Of a stretch of DNA of 24,000 bases, positions 3,001-17,828 are shown piece by piece. The translations under genes and the position numbers were made by a program. Positions within the stretch are counted from its first letter, which is position 1, and each line of letters opens with the position of its first letter. The stretch spans positions 686,865 to 710,864 of the forward strand of contig NZ_CP139303.1 of NCBI RefSeq assembly GCF_034092465.1, in the 5' to 3' direction. Under the pieces are notes generated by a model, which worked only from the letters and a program-made list of their open reading frames with translations, searched no databases and had not been told where the DNA came from. The stretch is from Prochlorococcus sp. MIT 1223. Its GTDB lineage: Bacteria; Cyanobacteriota; Cyanobacteriia; PCC-6307; Cyanobiaceae.

Positions 3001-3236
3001 ATTTCTGAACCAATTGTTTTCTCATTCAGATCAATTATATTTCGATCAGAATTTTTATCTTTAGGGACATTGTCTGAAGTTATCCTTTCTCGCTTTATAG
3101 GTCCATAATCTCTGTAATCAACTTTTGATGAACGAGAGTCAATTCTCGACGAATGAGAACTATTTCCCTGAGTGCCTACCTTGATTAAATACCATATAAA
3201 CCAAATGATAAAAACTAAGGCGATAAATTCTCCCAT
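1..3236 (-). CDS. Giant TPR-repeat protein with an N-terminal membrane anchor; 5'-complete, truncated by the window edge (>=1078 codons)
   Basis: Hand translation from the ATG at 3236 (minus) gives MGEFIALVFIIWFIWYLIKVGTQGNSSHSSRIDSRSSKVDYRDYGPIKRERITSDNVPKDKNSDRNIIDLNEKTIGSEMQEKSTAEEFAKSGFDKYMAQNYKEALDDYNQAIAIDPKNPDFYQYRA... This is a hydrophobic helix, a Ser/Arg/Lys linker, then canonical TPR units (A..Y..AI.IDP.N). Translating the same frame at bases 3-180 still gives TPR-like sequence (...GLAKGQIGRFEDSISDFTQSL...) with no stop. The ORF track has no complete minus-strand ORF here, consistent with one ORF running off the edge. Confidence 0.8.
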   Translation of the reverse strand, partial: MGEFIALVFIIWFIWYLIKVGTQGNSSHSSRIDSRSSKVDYRDYGPIKRERITSDNVPKDKNSDRNIIDLNEKTIGSEMQEKSTAEEFAKSGFDKYMAQNYKEALDDYNQAIAIDPKNPDFYQYRALIKSNLEVDHQEQINDWSKVIELRPEDEVAYQCRADSKNSLGDHQGAISDYKKSLELDPDDCAENNVYVSLARLQWFTEDKKGAIRSYRRHLGLHPEHNGLRLSIADIQYQLGDTQGALDELSRAIRIDPSIGRAYSRRGLIQYELKNYQEAIINFSRVLKKDELDDEEYAEAYLNRGKAKKESGDLNGACDDWQEASKLGNKDADKLLAENLKNVVDTSTQDNILLGNDLKTAADYYARADKNRFTDPLSALRDFTKSIQLDSKYKPEDGSLAYRERALMIRRLGSNKGAIKDFDKAIDLDQEDPDLFGLRAETRKQIDDLEGAFSDWEQESTLYLKKYNKTGNEFDKYQVESAKNKIENHDNYFADLANDFCDNGEYIKGVEHCNKVLGLFPNCAKAYFNRAIIKQRLGDYKDALADFDKTIEIDPDLFCEKPYEKRGQLKEMLGDYEGAIADYEKDEDFDIPFDVIRCKSLLGNHQEAIDMTANHMEDNSSFQARLKHDLGTFRFALGDYKGSVKEFNDAKEIYLKDSWGEASASEIDKAIDMIIKLKDEKEDFKESTTYYWRGKIMFELGQYVSAIQNFTKAIELNPDSPNAYFSRGITKNSFDIPDIKGAIEDYNKAIDLNSNQYDAYYKRAICRSDIGDLKGSISDLNICIENSNDDPVFYFNRGLLHARDNNIDDFFKDLLIAKSLKDEDDYSLKIHKLIAYKKSELNDHQGAIEDYTKAISVNRKDCSSYVLRGNSRNELGDFQGACSDWVDAYICREGPLEEKEDPKDLTLEEQIGFVTQFEAAEYIKEDNHVWKIGRAKEESGDIEGAIEEYALAIEINPSNKYALNSRGSVNSYNLENYEEAIKDFDTAIETDPNDALLYANRGYAKFQSGCYQEAIDDYSKSIDIKPEEGSHYYWRGLAKGQIGRFEDSISDFTQSLGMGYEEWNSYYFRGISKNHIKDI

Positions 3237-3515
3237 GCTTTTTTCTCTTAGGACTCATTGCAACTGATTTACTCATTTTAGTTAAGTCATTTTTTTCTAC
3301 CAAGACTCAATTTTTACAAGTAACACTTCAGAATGCAGTTCAGGGTTATTGCCACACTTTATAGCGTACTAAAAACTGGAGGGTATATATCACATCATTG
3401 ATAGCATTTAAAACTAATTGAAAATCCTCAAATTTGCTTCTATCTTTGTATCAATAAGGGTGTTTACTTCATTTAAGGGTTAGAATACTATTAACAGTGA
3501 TGGTTTCTAGCACAA

Positions 3516-7688: not shown

Positions 7689-7834
7689 TCTTAATCAAGC
7701 AAAATCAAGTCAATATATAGATTATCTAGCAAAAAAAGAAGTAGAAAAAAGTTGGTACTTTTATACGTGGACTAGTATCAATTGTTTAGGATAAGTAGAT
7801 AGGATGATTAATTGATGACAGATTTTCTAAAACC

Positions 7835-8927: not shown

Positions 8928-10442
8928 TTAGAACTTTAAAGTTGTCAAAACTACATAACCATTTGCATCGTCGTTAGTTCCAGTGTTTGGATCTGAACTT
9001 CCGAAGAAAGCAGGAGTAACTGACACATTGTCATTAACTTGGAATGTGTAGTAAGCCTCCCATGTGCTGTTGTCCTTAGCACCCTCTGATTGAGCAGTTG
9101 CTGTCTCATCAAGAGTCGCATGGTAAGTGTTAGCGGTCATTCTTGAACCGATAGCAAAACCAGCTTTGTTACCTTCAGAACCTACGTCATCCCACATTAG
9201 GCCGATCATCCAGCCGTCAGCTTCCTTAACGTTGACGTCGTTGTTGTCGATAGTAGTTGTGTCATACCCAATCTGAATAGCTGGGATAGCACCTACTTCT
9301 TCAGGCTTCCAGTAAGCTCTTAAACCGTAAGCTGTTTCATGAGCATGAGTAGCTCTTTCTGCAGCTTGATTTGTTGCGAAGTAAGTATCTGTCCAACCAC
9401 CACTCTTATAAGCAGTAGCTAGAGATACCTGCCATCTTGGAGAACCATACTCAAACTTGACAAGAGTTCCTCTCTTACCTGTTTCACCAAATATTCCGCT
9501 GTCAACAGCTGCAGACTCACCACTCTGTTGAGTATAAGCAAGAGATACAGCGAAGCGTGCAGCAGATGGATCATCCTTTTGCTGAGTCCAGGCAACACCT
9601 AAACCAGGGTTAGTGCTTGAACCGTAAACAGGACCATTACCACCAAGTGCGAATTGCTTCATCACTGGCTTATAAATAGATGGAGAGCTAGCTAGCATGT
9701 AGTAGTTCTCAACCTTTGGACCAATCCAAACTTTGAACTGTTCAGCAACTGGGAATGAATACCATAGCTTGTCTACCTTTAAGTAGTCATAAGCGGTAGC
9801 ACTGCTACCACCTGCCTCGGCAGAACCTGCACCATGAGCAGATAGGTATGTAGCAGATGTTCTGGTGCCGAAATGACCTTGAACGTTACCAGTCTTGATG
9901 CGAACATAAAGATTGTCTCTACCAGAGAAGCTGGAGTTCAAGTTCATCTGATAGCTGTACTCCATAGTTGTGGAGTCAGATGTATCAGCATCACTATCAA
10001 CCTGACCAACGATGATGTTGGCCTTACCGTCTAGCTTTGTTGTATTAGAGAATTGACCGGCTTCGAATTCGCCAACGCGAGCTTCAAGACCATCAATTCT
10101 ACCTTTGATTACAGCAAGCTCAGGAGCGAACTCATTGATAAGACGACGCTCTTCCTCGTTAACCTGAGCAACATTGCCAAGGCACTTGTTTAACAAAGAA
10201 GCAGCTTCGTAACGAGTGATGCTTCCAGAAGGATTAGCAACAGCACATCCGTGGCGCTCAGCCAAAGAAGTTAGAGCTTGATAAGCCCAATCTGTTGGAT
10301 AAACATCAGAGAAGCTCTGAACTTCTGAACCAGAAGTGTAGTCAGAGATTCCATCAATGTTTAAATCAGCAGCGTTTGCTGCCAATGGTGCCATTAGGCC
10401 CAATGCAGCAGGAGCTACCAGCAATTGCTGGAAAAGTTTCAT
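8928..10442 (-). CDS. som: Outer-membrane porin, N-terminal SLH domain plus OprB-like beta-barrel (Som family)
   Basis: 504 aa. Signal peptide MKLFQQLLVAPAALGLMAPLAANA, SLH motif DVYPTDWAYQALTSLAERHGC, coiled-coil linker, Gly/Tyr-rich beta-barrel ending in F. Typical picocyanobacterial Som porin. Confidence 0.88.
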   Translation of the reverse strand: MKLFQQLLVAPAALGLMAPLAANAADLNIDGISDYTSGSEVQSFSDVYPTDWAYQALTSLAERHGCAVANPSGSITRYEAASLLNKCLGNVAQVNEEERRLINEFAPELAVIKGRIDGLEARVGEFEAGQFSNTTKLDGKANIIVGQVDSDADTSDSTTMEYSYQMNLNSSFSGRDNLYVRIKTGNVQGHFGTRTSATYLSAHGAGSAEAGGSSATAYDYLKVDKLWYSFPVAEQFKVWIGPKVENYYMLASSPSIYKPVMKQFALGGNGPVYGSSTNPGLGVAWTQQKDDPSAARFAVSLAYTQQSGESAAVDSGIFGETGKRGTLVKFEYGSPRWQVSLATAYKSGGWTDTYFATNQAAERATHAHETAYGLRAYWKPEEVGAIPAIQIGYDTTTIDNNDVNVKEADGWMIGLMWDDVGSEGNKAGFAIGSRMTANTYHATLDETATAQSEGAKDNSTWEAYYTFQVNDNVSVTPAFFGSSDPNTGTNDDANGYVVLTTLKF

Positions 10443-12492: not shown

Positions 12493-12744
12493 TCAATTCA
12501 TCATTTTATTATATAAAAATAATCCAATTAGAATAAACAACCCTGATATCAAAATCAAGCTTATTAAAGAAATAATGTTCTGATTGAATAATAAGTATGT
12601 TGCTATAAAAAGTATTGAAGGTGCAAGTATTAAAGTTTTTGAAAATAAATCTTTATTCCATTTTGGAGATTCAGAAAAGTCATCTTCAGTTCTTAACTCT
12701 TTGAGACGCTCTTCTAAAGTCTTTTGATCAAAATTCTTCATCAA
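12493..12744 (-). CDS. Hypothetical small membrane protein (83 aa, two predicted TM helices)
   Basis: Charged N-terminus (KTLEERLKELRTEDDF), then two hydrophobic stretches: LILAPSILFIATYLLF and IISLISLILISGLFILIGLFLY. Confidence 0.55.
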   Translation of the reverse strand: MMKNFDQKTLEERLKELRTEDDFSESPKWNKDLFSKTLILAPSILFIATYLLFNQNIISLISLILISGLFILIGLFLYNKMMN

Positions 12745-12962
12745 TTGAATTCATATAAGGTATTAAACATAATGCAATAATTTTAGAACTAAATAAAGAC
12801 TCTAGACCTCAATCAAAAGCATTTTTACAAATCTATCTTTCAGCTGTTTCTTAAAATGAACTCTACGGCCTTAACCGTTAAATATTGTTTTAAAGATATC
12901 AGTAAATTAGGTGGTCAATGTAAAAAGTAGTATATTACAAGTATAAATAATCACTAATAGAA

Positions 12963-13076
12963 ATGTCTTCAGAGGAAATTCAATTAATTGGGAATTCTCT
13001 TGCAGCTCATCCTCCAATTATCATAGGGGCTCTATGCCTATTCATGTACATAAGAAGACGCTTTCTAGCTACTTAA
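12963..13076 (+). CDS. Possible 37-aa single-TM micro-protein (not in the ORF track)
   Basis: MSSEEIQLIGNSLAAHPPIIIGALCLFMYIRRRFLAT. Followed by the small hairpin AAAGCA-GCTT-TGCTTT (13076-13091), shared with the convergent gene 13116..13712. Confidence 0.3.
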   Translation: MSSEEIQLIGNSLAAHPPIIIGALCLFMYIRRRFLAT

Positions 13077-13115
13077 AGCAGCTTTGCTTTTATTAAATAA
13101 ATGACTAATTGCCTT

Positions 13116-13712
13116 TCAGCCAAAAGGATTAGTACCTTTTAAAGGACCTACAAATAAGAATTCCATGAAAGCTCCAGTTATGGCCATTGGGAATACCCAA
13201 ATCGCCATAAATCTGAATCCAAAAAATCTCATTTTTTCATTTCCTTCAAAGACATTCTTAGTATTGGTATAAATAGTTTCATCACCTTTAATTAAATAAG
13301 TAGATTTGTTATTCTCATCTATTGGTTTAACAATCTCATTAGTTTTTCTAGAAGTAAATCTTCTTATTGTATTTATAGCAACTATTGGTAAAACCCATAG
13401 AGCAAAGTCTCTCTTGCTAATATTTTTTCTAAATCCTTCCTTGCTAGGAATGGCACTTTCAATTAGAGAGTAAATGTATTCTGGTTCATTCATTTCTTTA
13501 ATATTAGTTGGATCTAACTCGCCTCCATTATCTAAGCTATCTTGATTTTCTAGTTCTTTATTTTCTGATGTTATAACTGCAACTGAGCTGTTTTCTTGAT
13601 CATTATTCAAATCAGCTCTATTAGAAGAATCAAATCCTCCTTCATTTAAATCTATATTTTCATTATTACTTACTGAATCAGATGAATCAGTATTTAAGTT
13701 TGGATCTTCCAT
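13116..13712 (-). CDS. Hypothetical membrane protein with an acidic, Asn/Ser/Asp-rich disordered N-terminus (198 aa)
   Basis: ORF-track ORF. The N-terminal ~80 aa are low-complexity acidic. Hydrophobic segments are FALWVLPIVAINTI and FMAIWVFPMAITGAFMEFLFV. No family recognised. Confidence 0.6.
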   Translation of the reverse strand: MEDPNLNTDSSDSVSNNENIDLNEGGFDSSNRADLNNDQENSSVAVITSENKELENQDSLDNGGELDPTNIKEMNEPEYIYSLIESAIPSKEGFRKNISKRDFALWVLPIVAINTIRRFTSRKTNEIVKPIDENNKSTYLIKGDETIYTNTKNVFEGNEKMRFFGFRFMAIWVFPMAITGAFMEFLFVGPLKGTNPFG

Positions 13713-13816
13713 TAAGAAATACTATTCTATTAAAATTATAATGAATCAAACTCTCAATAATCAAAATTAGATTGAATTGTATAAGTTTATATAAAAACTC
13801 TTAATAAAAAGTTTAC

Positions 13817-14125
13817 CTAAACTCCTATTACACCCCTACGGATGAACTGCATAGCAAATATTGCTCCTAGAAAAAATACAGTTGGTATTCCTAATGCGTT
13901 TACAGCCAGCGTCCTAACTGTAAAAACTGGATAGCCTCTTTCTGGCCTGCCTTGTGTAGCGACTATTGCAGTGTCTTCCCAAACTTGATAGTTCTCTAAA
14001 GTAGGAAAACCTGGAGCTACTTTGTTATCCCACTTTAATACTTCCCACTTCGTTAGCCAGAAGACTGTAAATACTAATGAAAAAATGATGGGTGTAAAAA
14101 CAAGAATTAGTCTGAAGTCCATCAA
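13817..14125 (-). CDS. Two-TM protein with a C-terminal cytochrome b559 beta (PsbF)-like domain lacking the heme-ligand His
   Basis: C-terminal [33 protein letters not shown] aligns with canonical PsbF YPIFTVRWLAVHTLAVP(S/T)VFF(L/V)GAIAAMQFIQR, recalled from memory. Asn replaces the axial His. The extra N-terminal TM helix is [21 protein letters not shown]. Confidence 0.65.
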
Positions 14126-14299
14126 AAACCAAAAATTTATGTACTAATCGTTGCATTGATAGAGCCAAAAAAGACGATTACATTAAACAGCATGACAATT
14201 CTGTAACTAATCTTATTCTGAGGCGTAGTAATTGAAGCTTTTCAGTGGACTATCAATTACATCTGTTAGGCTTAAAAAACTGCAGTTAGCAGGTTATTT

Positions 14300-14701
14300 A
14301 TGGAATTCGGTTTCAAAGAAGTTCTTTTTGGGCTTGCTGGGGTCAGCATGATTGCATGGGCCGCAGTCATTGGTCTTTGGCACACTTATATGTTTCCAAG
14401 ATTTTTCAGCGAAGACTCATCAAGGAATCAAAGCGTCTCAGATTCATCCATCGCTCCACTATCAATCGCCAATGCAAATGGATCTAATTTAGGAAAAGGC
14501 GAATTAAGGCCAAGCACCCAAACTATTGGTCTCCCTAGTAGAAATAAATATTCAAGGCAGTCAATTGTTTTAGCTGACTTCAGCCCTGTTGAGCCTGGAT
14601 ATGGAGTAAATAGATTGTATACAATTATTCTACTTGGCCTTGGAATTACCTCTTTTGTATTAATAACCTTTGGCCTTCAAAGTGGCTTTAACTTAATCTA
14701 G
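14300..14701 (+). CDS. Hypothetical membrane protein (133 aa, TM helix at each end)
   Basis: ORF-track ORF. Hydrophobic LFGLAGVSMIAWAAVIGLW and LYTIILLGLGITSFVLITFGL flank a Ser-rich hydrophilic loop. Confidence 0.55.
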   Translation: MEFGFKEVLFGLAGVSMIAWAAVIGLWHTYMFPRFFSEDSSRNQSVSDSSIAPLSIANANGSNLGKGELRPSTQTIGLPSRNKYSRQSIVLADFSPVEPGYGVNRLYTIILLGLGITSFVLITFGLQSGFNLI

Positions 14702-15025
14702 AATATCAAAAATCCTTTGTTTTTAATGTTTTATGAGGTATTTTATAAATACTTATAGTTTTATTTTGATTGGTAATATATAAATTTATATTTTTTTAAA
14801 ATAATTAAAATTAATATAGGTAAAACTTTAAATCAAATAAATAATTAACTTTAAATGGCTTTAAAATGATGCTTAATTCGATTAAACCATTGGTTAGAAA
14901 GGAGCCATTGTGAATCAACAAAAAAATGAGACCTATAGTTGTATAAAAAAAAATAGCCTAAAGAAGATAATCTCGGTCTAATTGATCAAATTTGGACTAA
15001 TATATATCTGATTTTCAACCATACA

Positions 15026-15547
15026 ATGACAGTAGGAATCTACTTTGCTACAACAACAGGCAAAACTGAGGATATAGCTGAAAGGCTTCACGGCTTACTT
15101 GACTCAGCAGATGCTCCAAAGGATATTTCTGACGTTGATGACCTAAGTGAATTTGGTGGTCACGATGGAATTATTTGCGGAATTCCTACCTGGAACACCG
15201 GTGCTGATTCAGAAAGATCTGGCACTGCCTGGGATTCAATTCTTGAAGATATTGGAGAATTAGATCTTGGAGGAAAAAAAGTTGCGATTTTTGGACTAGG
15301 TGACTCCTCTACTTACACAGAAAACTACTGTGATGCGATGGAAGAACTTCACAGGTACTTCAAGCAAGCTGGCGCCACAATGGTTGGATATGTCAGTAAA
15401 GGTGACTATACATTTGACGAGTCAAAAAGTGTCGTAGGAGAAGATTTCTGCGGCCTGCCTCTAGATGAGGACAGCGAATCAGACATGACTGATTCACGAA
15501 TTGCTACTTGGGCAGAAAAGTTAAAGCAAGAAATCCCAGGACTTTAA
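15026..15547 (+). CDS. isiB: Long-chain flavodoxin
   Basis: 173 aa. The FMN-binding N-terminus GIYFATTTGKTEDIAE, plus GIPTWNTG and FGLGDS..Y..N(Y)CDA, is a classic cyanobacterial IsiB. Confidence 0.93.
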   Translation: MTVGIYFATTTGKTEDIAERLHGLLDSADAPKDISDVDDLSEFGGHDGIICGIPTWNTGADSERSGTAWDSILEDIGELDLGGKKVAIFGLGDSSTYTENYCDAMEELHRYFKQAGATMVGYVSKGDYTFDESKSVVGEDFCGLPLDEDSESDMTDSRIATWAEKLKQEIPGL

Positions 15548-15603
15548 AGGGACATAAAGCTATAAAGGGTATTTAACTTTTATAGCTTCTATCATTCTTG
15601 AAA

Positions 15604-15647
15604 AAATAGTTTCTCTCCTTTAACGCCTTAAGGGAGAGGAACTATTT
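15604..15647 (+). terminator. 20-bp stem (two G-U wobbles, CGCC tetraloop) downstream of isiB; plus-strand-specific terminator or stable RNA end
   Basis: 15604-15623 pairs with 15628-15647, checked base by base. The two non-Watson-Crick positions are U-G on the plus transcript but would be A-C mismatches on the minus transcript. Followed by TCATATTTT. A weaker AT-rich 10-bp hairpin precedes it at 15557-15587. Confidence 0.65.
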
Positions 15648-15699
15648 CATATTTTCAGAAACCAAGACAATTGGACTAAAATGTCTTAAGGTTTTCTTT

Positions 15700-15939
15700 A
15701 TGAACTCAAGACAGTCTTCTGGGGATGAGGTTTTATTCCCGGTAACCATTTCGATAAAAGCTGGAACAGCTAAGCTTTTATCGCAAATGGCTATGGATAT
15801 GGGGATTAGCATCGACGATGTATTGAGCGTCTTAGCCGAAGATGCAGCTATTGACCTCGAAAATGATCTACCATATTTCCATAAAGATTCAATTCCAGAT
15901 AAATGCAGTAAAGATGACTTACTAAAAGCCCTTGAATAA
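15700..15939 (+). CDS. Hypothetical 79-aa acidic protein, possibly ribbon-helix-helix-like
   Basis: ORF-track ORF. VTISIKAGTAKLLSQMAMDMGISIDDVLSVLAEDA has a strand-helix-helix pattern by eye only. Confidence 0.5.
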   Translation: MNSRQSSGDEVLFPVTISIKAGTAKLLSQMAMDMGISIDDVLSVLAEDAAIDLENDLPYFHKDSIPDKCSKDDLLKALE

Positions 15940-15995
15940 TAAAAAATAAGAAGACAAACTATTAAAATTATTTTGTAGCGAACAACAAAACACTT

Positions 15996-17828
15996 CTAAA
16001 GTCTCTCAGGTCTTGGATTTTGCCAATCTGCATTAACTCCTTGATTCTGCAATTCTTTAGCACGAAGATCTAGATCTCTTCTATTTAATCTCCAAACTTT
16101 ATATACACTAAACTCCCCAAGCAATTCTGGATTCAGGTCTTTCCAGTGATTATAATCACTCGTTTGCTTATCAATTACCATCAAAAATGTATTTTCATTA
16201 CCACCTGGTTCTCTAGGAGATCCTTCCCAACTATCCCTTTTCTCAATAGATAATCTTTCAGAAAGATTAACTAATGCCACAACATCATTTGATTCATAAA
16301 GAACTACTTTATTAATATAAAAATGAATTGATGGCTTATTAATTCCAACCATTGCTACAGCTTCATAAGTTTTTTTGCTGGACTTTATCAACTCAGAAAC
16401 TTGACGTAAAGGCAGTTGTCTCAAATAATCTCCGGTTTTCCACATTGGATTTATTATGTATAGTTGAAAAATAAATAATGGTATTTGTATTAAAAGTAAT
16501 CTGCCATTTTTGAATCTTAATCCTATTAATATTGCAGCAATAGATGAGAAAAAGAGGAGATTAAAAGCCTTTTTCCCAATTGCAATATCAATCAAAGTCT
16601 CTCCTAAATTTGGCATTTCTGGGTCATTAATAAATTCCACCCAAATTGGCAGGAGTAAAAGAACTAAAGAAATAAAAATACAAATCGTACATGTCAATAT
16701 CCAAAGTAGATTTTGAGACTTTGACTTGTTTTCTTTATTTATAGAGTAATGTGCTATTAATATTGAAGCTGCAGGGGTAGCTGGCAACCAATAACTAGGT
16801 AACTTAGTAGCGGCAAATGTGAATAATATAAAAACAGAGATAAGCCAACAAAAAGCAAAGTTGGTTAAAGATTCCTCTGGTATAGGAATGGATCTTTTAT
16901 CTAATCTAATAATATTCTTTAATTCTTTATACAGGCTAAATAGTAAAAAGGAAGAGAAAGGTAATGAACCAATTACAAGAATTAAGCAAAAAAACCACCA
17001 CGGTTGCTGATGACTATTTACAACAGAAGTAAATCTTTGAAAATTATGATAACCAAAAAAACTTTCTCCAAAAGATTTACCTTCTATTAATAGTTCTAGT
17101 AGGTACCAAGGAGAACTTAAAACCAAAGTTAGTAAAATTCCCTTGATAGGTTTTATTCGATTAATTAATCGTCCATAATCATTTTGAAATAATCCAAAGA
17201 AAAAAAGCACCATTCCAGTAAGAACTACTGCTACTGGTCCCTTAGCAAGAACTGCCAAAGATAAAAATATCCATGCTGACCACCAATTTTGATTACAGGG
17301 ATTTGAATATCTTTTCCATTGCAAAAGCAAATTAATTCCAAGAGTGCTACAAAGAAGTGCATCGCTTACAGCAATTCGACTCCAAATTAAAACTAAAGGT
17401 GAAAGGGCAAAAGCAAGTGAACCTATAAGAGCAGTTCTACGCGGATAAAGATCAAATTTTAATGGATTTAGTATTAATATTTTGCCTATTGCAAGCATCA
17501 TCAATAGTGAAGAGAATGCTGAGGGGAATCGAGCAGACCAAGTCCCAAGGGGATCCCATATATCTTGAAAAGGTAGTGCATAAATTATTCCCATCAACCA
17601 ATAAATTAATGGGGGCTTATCAAAACGAGGCAAGCCATTAACTCTTGGTGTAAGCCAATCCCCAGTGATATGCATAGCCCTTCCCGCTGCTGCAAATAAA
17701 GGAGGAGTTTCATCAAATAAGCCTGTAGAACCTAACTCCCAAAAAAATAAAATAATTCCTATGAAAAGAATAAATAGTAATCCTCTTTTTCTTGATTTAT
17801 TTTCCAAGTAAATTCTTTCTTCTTCCAT
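15996..17828 (-). CDS. Polytopic membrane glycosyltransferase, family 39 (ArnT/PMT-like)
   Basis: 610 aa with ~12 or more hydrophobic segments. The N-terminal loop motif FDETPPLFAAAGRAM...RFDKPPLIYWLMG is typical of GT39/ArnT-type enzymes. Confidence 0.75.
   Translation of the reverse strand: MEEERIYLENKSRKRGLLFILFIGIILFFWELGSTGLFDETPPLFAAAGRAMHITGDWLTPRVNGLPRFDKPPLIYWLMGIIYALPFQDIWDPLGTWSARFPSAFSSLLMMLAIGKILILNPLKFDLYPRRTALIGSLAFALSPLVLIWSRIAVSDALLCSTLGINLLLQWKRYSNPCNQNWWSAWIFLSLAVLAKGPVAVVLTGMVLFFFGLFQNDYGRLINRIKPIKGILLTLVLSSPWYLLELLIEGKSFGESFFGYHNFQRFTSVVNSHQQPWWFFCLILVIGSLPFSSFLLFSLYKELKNIIRLDKRSIPIPEESLTNFAFCWLISVFILFTFAATKLPSYWLPATPAASILIAHYSINKENKSKSQNLLWILTCTICIFISLVLLLLPIWVEFINDPEMPNLGETLIDIAIGKKAFNLLFFSSIAAILIGLRFKNGRLLLIQIPLFIFQLYIINPMWKTGDYLRQLPLRQVSELIKSSKKTYEAVAMVGINKPSIHFYINKVVLYESNDVVALVNLSERLSIEKRDSWEGSPREPGGNENTFLMVIDKQTSDYNHWKDLNPELLGEFSVYKVWRLNRRDLDLRAKELQNQGVNADWQNPRPERL

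Follow-up and report, generated by a model that had tools for sequence, protein, structure and literature searches.

A PsbY-PsbF fusion protein with asparagine at the heme-ligand position is the sole PsbF-type gene product found in the genome of Prochlorococcus sp. MIT1223

Introduction

Cytochrome b559 is treated as an obligatory component of every photosystem II (PSII), and the purpose of its heme has been open for decades. Its PsbF subunit runs from the cytoplasmic side of the membrane to the lumen, and the small subunit PsbY has its N terminus in the lumen and a basic C terminus on the cytoplasmic or stromal side. Heme-less b559 mutants, in which the His ligand provided by PsbE or by PsbF was replaced, have been engineered in Thermosynechococcus and Chlamydomonas. 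Within PSII, PsbY adjoins PsbE (PMC10889353), and a 2025 review found no consensus on any physiological redox role of the b559 heme (PMC12661325).

The chain F sequence (99 aa) deposited for the PSII-Pcb complex of Acaryochloris marina (7ymi and 7ymm) is a PsbF-PsbY fusion, which shows that the two helices can tolerate being joined covalently. In that protein PsbF comes first, the join is lumenal and the heme His is retained, an arrangement that is also compatible with the known topologies of both subunits; the paper on the 7ymi structure does not discuss the chain F fusion, and density for PsbY was not seen. In sequence databases, a "long form" of the b559 beta subunit is recognized by NF002717 and NF002720, and UniProt holds a "PsbF-like protein" from strain NATL2A (Q46JP5). 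The protein described in this work is a member of that family and does not differ from it at the sequence level, but the database names are silent on its PsbY domain, on the lost heme ligand and on its status as the sole beta-type gene in some clades. The family is hence already named, and what is new is the existence of genomes that carry it without a normal psbF and a normal psbY. In a full-text literature search we found no paper on the make-up of the long form and none on the loss of psbF or psbY in the LLI, LLVIII or HNLC clades; the account of the HNLC clades by Rusch et al. 2010 was outside that search.

Here we analyze a long-form gene of Prochlorococcus sp. MIT1223, the first cultured LLVIII-grade member, which was sequenced at 236x and shows an unusually low photosynthetic quantum efficiency (Becker et al. 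2024, PMC11559063); psbF and b559 are not mentioned in that paper. The genome is closed, 100% complete and 1,795,922 bp long, with 35.7% GC. All coordinates below, unless stated otherwise, refer to the window, a stretch of 24,000 nucleotides (positions 686,865 to 710,864 of contig NZ_CP139303.1). An earlier, sequence-only reading of this DNA had pointed to a PsbF-like paralogue with an extra N-terminal helix and without the heme His, and had suggested that it might replace PsbF when iron or heme is scarce.

Results

The long-form gene encodes a two-helix protein that lacks the PsbF heme ligand

The open reading frame listed at 13817..14125 on the minus strand opens at a TTG codon (14125) that is directly followed by an ATG (14122). 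Because of this adjacent ATG, and because the closest relatives are also 101 aa long, ATG 14122 is the likely start codon and the product has 101 aa. The gene and its parts are as follows.

13817..14122, minus strand: PsbY-PsbF fusion gene ("cytochrome b559 beta, long form") for a protein of 101 aa, with its stop codon, matched by NF002717
14027..14122, minus strand: PsbY-like N-terminal transmembrane helix (tblastn, hhalign, Pfam scans of relatives, alignment with 7ymi chain F)
13937..14026, minus strand: predicted cytoplasmic linker (about 30-40 aa) that carries the conserved ENYQxWED...GRP motif (conservation)
13835..13936, minus strand: PsbF-type transmembrane helix (PF00283 and TIGR01333 above cut-off, alignments to solved PsbF chains)
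13910..13912, minus strand: codon ACG for Thr72, aligned with the conserved Trp of PsbF (sequence and HMMER alignment)
13898..13900, minus strand: codon AAC for Asn76, aligned with the PsbF His that ligates the heme (sequence and HMMER alignment)

The protein matched NF002717 ("cytochrome b559 subunit beta, long form") with 158.3 bits (cut-off 153, E 4.3e-47), residues 2-100 aligning with positions 1-95 of the 97 in the profile. It also exceeded the cut-offs of Pfam PF00283 (37.7 bits versus 30, E 1.3e-9, residues 63-87) and of TIGR01333 (cyt_b559_beta; 63.2 bits versus 61.15, E 1.2e-17). Two AlphaFold runs predicted two helices, 3-25/33 and 69-96/101, separated by a low-confidence loop of about 40 aa, with a pLDDT of about 65 and a pTM of 0.35-0.38 that give no confident packing of the helices. 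Canonical PsbF is a single helix of about 40-50 aa, and the profile matches and predicted helices bear out the proposal of a PsbF homologue of about twice the usual size, with an additional N-terminal transmembrane helix and a loop of some 40 residues.

The C-terminal 35 residues correspond to the PsbF helix, are 83% identical to PsbF of strain SS120 and keep the YP.FT.R motif. In HMMER alignments this helix pairs column for column with the solved PsbF chains, and Asn76 and Thr72 fall in the columns of the heme-ligating His and of the conserved Trp, respectively. Both substitutions had been noticed in the sequence-only reading by comparison with a PsbF sequence that proved to equal the psbF products of other cyanobacteria. 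When the spread of the His-to-Asn change was surveyed, Asn was found at the ligand column in 121 of 121 homologues, and Thr at the Trp column in 120 of the same 121. The fusion protein contains neither His nor Cys, and the family has 25 invariant columns, the Asn among them; its sequences are under strong purifying selection. Given the invariant Asn in the ligand column and the lack of any His in the protein, the usual alpha-beta bis-His heme bridge is impossible with this subunit.

Among 53 diverse members of the family, N44 and W48 of the linker are invariant and D50 and R59 nearly so, and the linker is therefore more than a passive tether. It would sit on the side of the membrane on which the heme is usually located. 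A further difference from canonical psbF is that the fusion gene lies outside the psbE operon, some 174 kb from psbE. The only evidence of expression that we found concerns the orthologue of strain MIT9312 (PMT9312_1176), which is transcribed and whose expression is lowered by plastic leachate.

The N-terminal helix resembles PsbY

The fusion protein itself gave no match to Pfam PsbY (PF06298, gathering score 24 bits) at E<=1. Nevertheless, when the genome was searched with PsbY by tblastn, the N terminus of the fusion was the top match of the entire genome, and the similarity ran on past the helix into a W..W segment. A profile of 114 N-terminal parts compared by hhalign with a profile of 30 PsbY sequences gave a probability of 94% (P 8.4e-8). 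When the N-terminal segments of 24 diverse relatives were each scanned against all Pfam, PsbY was the only recurrent family, with sub-threshold matches in 11 of them (best E 0.0031). The PsbY of marine Synechococcus (MDARLLLVVTPILLAAGWAVF) resembles the N terminus of the fusion, and a stand-alone PsbY of 35 aa encoded in another genome of the survey, G022 (MDFRVLIVLSPIVFSVVWTAFWLARWGVFKFDSAS), both passes the Pfam cut-off (25 bits) and matches the profile of the fusion N terminus at E 9e-15. Fusion and PsbY share the motif MD.R..LV..P....... and the W..W/QW region that follows it; they differ in that the helix is fused here rather than free, and in that the linker takes the place of the basic C-terminal tail of PsbY. 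On these sequence comparisons, the extra helix is derived from PsbY. The helix that the sequence-only reading had described is thus present, but it is not the anonymous addition that it was taken for, since it derives from PsbY and a stand-alone psbY is missing from the genome (see below).

Both halves of the protein also match A. marina chain F, so that the same two subunits are joined in the two proteins, in the opposite order and with a different fate of the heme ligand. A PsbY-then-PsbF fusion joined on the cytoplasmic side is compatible with both helices occupying their normal places.

MIT1223 has no canonical psbF and no stand-alone psbY

Scans of the whole MIT1223 genome with PF00283 and TIGR01333 found only the fusion gene and psbE, with no canonical psbF, and tblastn with three canonical PsbF queries (word size 2, E up to 100) gave no further match. 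Where psbF is present, its coding sequence takes up about 140 nt between psbE and psbL. In the psbE locus of MIT1223 (G000:C1, about 874.27-874.88 kb), a spacer of only 34 nt separates psbE from psbL, and psbJ comes next. The gene had been read as a paralogue next to a genuine psbF elsewhere in the genome; this view has to be abandoned for MIT1223, where the fusion stands in the place of psbF and not beside it. Neither the Pfam PsbY search (0/1) nor tblastn found a stand-alone psbY, and the fusion is the sole PsbF-type gene and the sole PsbY-like sequence found in this genome.

Genes as small as psbF (about 45 codons) and psbY (35-40 codons) are easily missed, and the PsbY proteins of Prochlorococcus score low, at 26-38 bits. 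The two absences could on these grounds be artefacts of assembly, annotation or searching, and the fusion an ordinary extra paralogue. We regard this as very improbable. The junction of psbE with psbL was read at the level of single bases in the closed 236x genome and in three closed genomes of LLI, searches by six-frame HMM and by tblastn are independent of annotation, psbF-less junctions recur in 41 independent assemblies, and the Pfam PsbY search does find psbY in 42 of 47 HL genomes and in all SS120-type and MIT9211-type genomes.

Local alignments of the psbE-psbL spacers revealed no significant remnant of psbF (p about 0.12 for HNLC, and >0.7 for MIT1223 and NATL2A), and for this reason we claim the loss of psbF without proposing a mechanism for it.

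psbF and psbY are missing together in lineages that keep the fusion

The distribution of the three genes was determined in 395 Cyanobiaceae genomes at least 90% complete; for stand-alone psbY, 263 genomes at least 98% complete were considered. The main groups gave the following counts.

MIT1223 (LLVIII): canonical psbF absent; fusion present; stand-alone psbY absent
LLI genus (g55, including NATL2A): canonical psbF 0/18; fusion 16/18; stand-alone psbY 0/9
HL genus (g18): canonical psbF 90/93; fusion 56/93; stand-alone psbY 42/47
SS120-type (g11, n=3) and MIT9211-type (g56, n=2): psbF in all; fusion in all; psbY in all
Synechococcus genus g61: psbF in nearly all, none of the 8 fusion-bearing genomes lacking it; fusion in 8 (about a quarter); psbY 30/30
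Synechococcus genus g4: psbF in all; fusion in 1; stand-alone psbY in all

In the LLI genus, TIGR01333 gave a single match at the long-form score in 15 of the 18 genomes and none in three drafts, and Pfam PsbY, which was found in 245 of the 263 genomes overall, was found in none of the nine LLI genomes at least 98% complete. The order psbE-psbL-psbJ was read directly in three closed LLI genomes, NATL2A among them. In an independent orthologue table, psbF of MIT9312 has no counterpart in NATL2A, whose psbE and psbL carry consecutive accessions (PMC6517427, supplement). In 31 species-representative genomes, all from Prochlorococcus and including MIT1012 and MIT0916, psbL begins 20-45 nt after psbE, and psbF-less psbE-psbL junctions were counted in 41 independent assemblies in total.

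Within the HL genus, the genomes HNLC1, HNLC2 and G311 gave a PsbF match at the long-form level only, and in them an AT-rich, non-coding spacer of about 105 nt separates psbE from psbL. This spacer pattern retrieved HNLC1, HNLC2, seven AH-287/AH-321 SAGs and one MAG, and all ten genomes contain psbE and psbL and lack psbF. No stand-alone psbY was found in HNLC1, HNLC2 or G311, where the sole PsbY-like match is the N terminus of the fusion; the PsbY of ordinary HL genomes, with a score of about 38 bits, would have been detected by the Pfam PsbY search, and the absence of psbY from the HNLC clades rests on these three genomes, which are only 90-95% complete. Not one closed genome lacks both PsbF types; one of the two is always kept.

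Taken together, the gene contents indicate that psbF and psbY disappeared jointly on at least two occasions, in each case from a lineage that retains the fusion. In a Ycf48 tree, HL, the pair formed by MIT1223 and AG-435-K18, and LLI form an unresolved trichotomy, and consequently only the HNLC loss is clearly independent, and LLVIII and LLI may represent one loss or two. The paired losses are a strong, though indirect, argument that the fusion fulfils the structural roles of PsbF and PsbY alike. The proposal that the protein may substitute for PsbF gains strong support from comparative genomics. The condition attached to it, scarcity of iron or heme, is not upheld for MIT1223; with neither a canonical psbF nor a stand-alone psbY in this genome, the substitution there would be constitutive.

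The fusion might instead be an accessory or assembly factor, or a placeholder in times of stress, that binds PsbE or D2 transiently, so that mature PSII of the psbF-less strains would contain PsbE alone or a heme-binding PsbE homodimer. The fusion does occur beside canonical psbF and psbY in most genomes that carry it (HLII, SS120, MIT9211 and CRD1), as would be expected of an accessory paralogue, and it is dispensable in some HL genomes, since it is present in 56 of 93. A transient role nevertheless seems quite unlikely to us, because the joint loss of psbF and psbY occurred two or more times, and in fusion-bearing lineages only, and because the PsbF helix, which apart from the two heme contacts shares about 83% identity with canonical PsbF, has preserved its packing surface. 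Moreover, no PSII without a beta helix is known, and PsbE bears no sign of adaptation to a homodimer.

PsbE of psbF-less genomes and the fate of the heme

A b559 with the fusion as its beta subunit could still bind heme through PsbE. His23, Arg18, Tyr19 and Trp20 of PsbE are kept in all 30 of the psbF-less LLI and LLVIII genomes from which the gene was recovered, and in HNLC. This conservation of the heme side of PsbE counts against the absence of heme, since these residues might be expected to drift in a PsbE that binds none, although the test is weak, PsbE being so conserved overall. Thr26 of PsbE, one helical turn from His23, is replaced by Ala in 30 of 30 LLI/LLVIII genomes and in 0 of 30 others, HNLC not sharing the change, which hints at a remodelled pocket in genomes that are phylogenetically non-independent.

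One way to accommodate these observations is that the fusion occupies the PsbF and PsbY positions and the heme is kept with an unusual ligation and with altered potential and chemistry, PsbE-His being its sole protein ligand (a five-coordinate heme or one with water as the sixth ligand) and Asn tuning it by hydrogen bonding. The unchanged R18, Y19, W20 and H23 in every psbF-less genome examined would fit such a heme, as would the LLI/LLVIII-specific Thr26-to-Ala change; moreover, the ligand column holds an invariant Asn and not merely any residue other than His, which suggests a specific role. We nonetheless consider a retained heme unlikely. Asn is not known as an axial ligand of b-type hemes, and this counts in favor of heme absence. 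For a complex that evolves oxygen, a high-spin heme with an open site close to QB would be a liability; the heme-packing Trp is lost as well, and the low-iron ecology of HLIII/IV and CRD1 is better suited by loss of the heme. The absence of heme is therefore favored, on account of the missing heme-packing Trp and the low-iron lineages concerned.

Genomic surroundings and the link to iron

The genes and the promoter region around the fusion gene are listed below.

13116..13712, minus strand: gene for a 198-aa protein with a conserved hydrophobic C-terminal region, downstream of the fusion gene (ORF list)
14123..14299, no strand assigned: divergent promoter region of the fusion gene and the 133-aa protein gene, with blocks conserved in NATL2A (..AGAGCCAAAAA.G.. 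and AATTCTGTAAC)
14300..14701, plus strand: gene for a 133-aa membrane protein, divergent to the fusion gene and syntenic in MIT1223, NATL2A and SS51
15026..15547, plus strand: isiB, flavodoxin (NF006738, FldA; 290.7 bits versus a cut-off of 172)

The distance of about 900 bp to isiB that was read from the sequence proved accurate, the start of the fusion gene lying 901 bp from the isiB ATG at 15026, with the gene for the 133-aa membrane protein in between. This adjacency was observed in MIT1223 and NATL2A and not in SS51 (HLII), SS120, MIT9211 or the CRD1 Synechococcus. The 198-aa gene adjoins the fusion gene, in varying orientation, in MIT1223, NATL2A, SS51, SS120 and MIT9211; its product is limited to some Prochlorococcus genera and does not follow the fusion cleanly. 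Neither the 133-aa nor the 198-aa protein matched Pfam or NCBIfam.

No Fur box of the E. coli-type consensus was found near the fusion gene, and Rfam gave no match in 12500-16000. The divergent promoter region holds one copy of the composite word TGGACTATCAATT, at 14246. In the form TGGACTA(N0-4)TCAATT or in the inverted arrangement, this word has eight copies in the genome, of which three are intergenic, and these three all lie in the window, at idiA/piuC (7768), in the fusion promoter (14246) and at isiB (14980). The word was considered as a shared element of iron regulation and was rejected, as it is not conserved in the orthologous regions of NATL2A or SS51.

Three of the Synechococcus genomes that carry the fusion could be assigned to named strains, MIT S9220, BIOS-U3-1 and BIOS-E4-1, and all three strains belong to clade CRD1. 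Low-iron and HNLC waters are dominated by HLIII/IV, LLIB and CRD1 (PMC10119275); LLI and LLVIII are not strictly low-iron lineages. The suggested connection with iron thus holds in part: HLIII/IV, with the fusion as sole PsbF-type gene, and the fusion-bearing CRD1 strains are low-iron organisms, but the adjacency to isiB is limited to LLI and LLVIII and the locus has no Fur-type box. Because of these two limits the link is circumstantial, and it rests mainly on ecology and not on local regulation.

Discussion

The comparison of genomes suggests that the fusion fills the positions of both PsbF and PsbY in PSII, and that b559 in the strains that depend on it is without bis-His ligation and probably without heme, a reading that we consider likely. 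One polypeptide would supply two neighboring transmembrane helices of PSII: the PsbY-derived helix would have its N terminus in the lumen and its C terminus in the cytoplasm, the conserved cytoplasmic linker of about 40 residues would join the two helices, and the PsbF-derived C-terminal helix would lead from the cytoplasm back to the lumen. In MIT1223, LLI and HLIII/IV the fusion would be the constitutive occupant of the b559 beta and PsbY positions beside PsbE. The heme is most likely absent from this assembly, where the tethered PsbY helix and the linker may give the brace that normally comes from the heme, and its absence would spare one Fe per PSII. We infer that economy of iron may have been the selective driver. 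The stronger proposal, that LLI, LLVIII and HLIII/IV all run a PSII with a single PsbY-PsbF polypeptide and no b559 heme at all, is one that we put forward tentatively, as a possibility with slightly less in its favor than against it.

The closest experimental counterparts of such a state are the engineered heme-less mutants mentioned above. As in those strains, the alpha-beta pair would be unable to ligate heme on both sides, but those are point mutants made in the laboratory, whereas the state described here would be natural, ancient and fixed in whole clades, and would come with a tethered PsbY.

Whole ocean lineages appear, from their gene content, to run PSII without the normal form of a supposedly universal cytochrome. 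The annotation label "cytochrome b559 subunit beta", taken literally, is probably wrong for the fusion. If the beta-side ligand is naturally missing from cultured strains such as NATL2A and MIT1223, the role of the heme could be tested directly in wild-type cells, and, if the heme is indeed absent, these clades would offer a natural, clade-wide demonstration that it is dispensable. MIT1223 has no PsbV above the Pfam threshold; were the b559 heme gone as well, with PsbV absent by that threshold, its PSII would be down to one iron atom. The fusion might also have some relevance to the low quantum efficiency of photosynthesis that has been reported in MIT1223 (PMC11559063). If this reading is true, the fusion would be an overlooked iron-sparing adaptation common to these Prochlorococcus and to CRD1 Synechococcus, and an addition to the ways in which the picocyanobacteria dominant in iron-poor oceans economize on iron. 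As the sole PsbF-type gene of MIT1223, and the carrier of the only PsbY-like sequence found there, it makes the cytochrome b559 region of PSII in this strain a natural variant.

Substitution in PsbE near the heme ligand

The psbE gene of MIT1223 lies outside the window:

G000 (the whole MIT1223 genome), contig C1, about 874.63-874.88 kb (1357-1605 of the excised locus L001): psbE

Its product carries Ala instead of an otherwise invariant Thr three residues past the heme His (HAVALP versus HxxTxP). This Thr-to-Ala replacement was present in all 30 psbF-less LLI/LLVIII genomes recovered, versus 0 of the 30 psbF-containing cyanobacteria, and the Thr is retained at the same position in the HNLC genomes. 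As for cytochrome c550 (PsbV), no match reached the Pfam threshold anywhere in G000, the best one (18.7 bits; a 119-aa frame at 9832-9939) falling below it.

Surroundings of the fusion gene

Two conserved membrane-protein genes without an assigned function flank the fusion gene, which encodes a PsbY-like helix, a linker and a PsbF helix:

13116-13712, minus strand: 198 aa
14300-14701, plus strand: 133 aa

The 198-aa gene, which is confined to some Prochlorococcus genera, adjoins the fusion gene in MIT1223, NATL2A, SS51, SS120 and MIT9211, its orientation being variable. A composite word, TGGACTA(N0-4)TCAATT or its inverted form AATTGA(N0-8)TGGACTA, occurs eight times in the 1.8-Mb MIT1223 genome, and the only three intergenic copies are all within the window:

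7768-7783: upstream of idiA/piuC
14246-14258: divergent promoter of the fusion gene and its 133-aa neighbour
14980-14999: upstream of isiB, the flavodoxin gene

The word was not conserved in NATL2A or SS51.

In HL genomes, an ORF of 62-64 aa (MMDIRFLIVVAPFLIAFFYTLFWLKKWGAFNS...) is found in tandem directly 3' of the fusion gene:

L180 (SS51 locus, HLII), 3190-3378: tandem ORF

It encodes a second PsbY-like helix and the beginning of the linker, without the PsbF part. The survey of fusion-gene loci revealed the SS51 arrangement in most HL genomes; the ORF was not found in MIT1223, NATL2A or the HNLC genomes, and its protein had no exact match in a collection of 15 billion proteins.

Variants and possible origin of the fusion

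PsbF and a PsbY-like helix are also joined in chain F of the Acaryochloris photosystem II structures (PDB 7ymi and 7ymm), which is 99 aa long as deposited, bears the title 'Photosystem II protein Y' and consists of PsbF (residues 4-47, His kept) followed by the PsbY-like helix (62-83). In the structure paper this chain was handled as PsbF, and PsbY was reported as not found in the map.

A variant of the long form was detected in genome G015, which is 90% complete and whose assembly lacks psbE:

L033 (G015, contig C11), 12295-12555: long-form variant

Its product (YPVFTVRWLAINALGIP...) still ends in the canonical IAAMQFIRR and has kept the Trp, yet Asn already stands in place of the His, and it is possibly an intermediate. 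The fusion gene adjoins a gene for a pentapeptide-repeat protein of about 190-200 aa in genome G045 (L187) and in fusion-bearing Synechococcus (L183, L189 and L184), and a gene for such a protein also adjoins the stand-alone, long-form-like psbY of MIT1307 (L185, about 1578-1682). This shared neighbourhood suggests that a psbY locus was the birthplace of the fusion.
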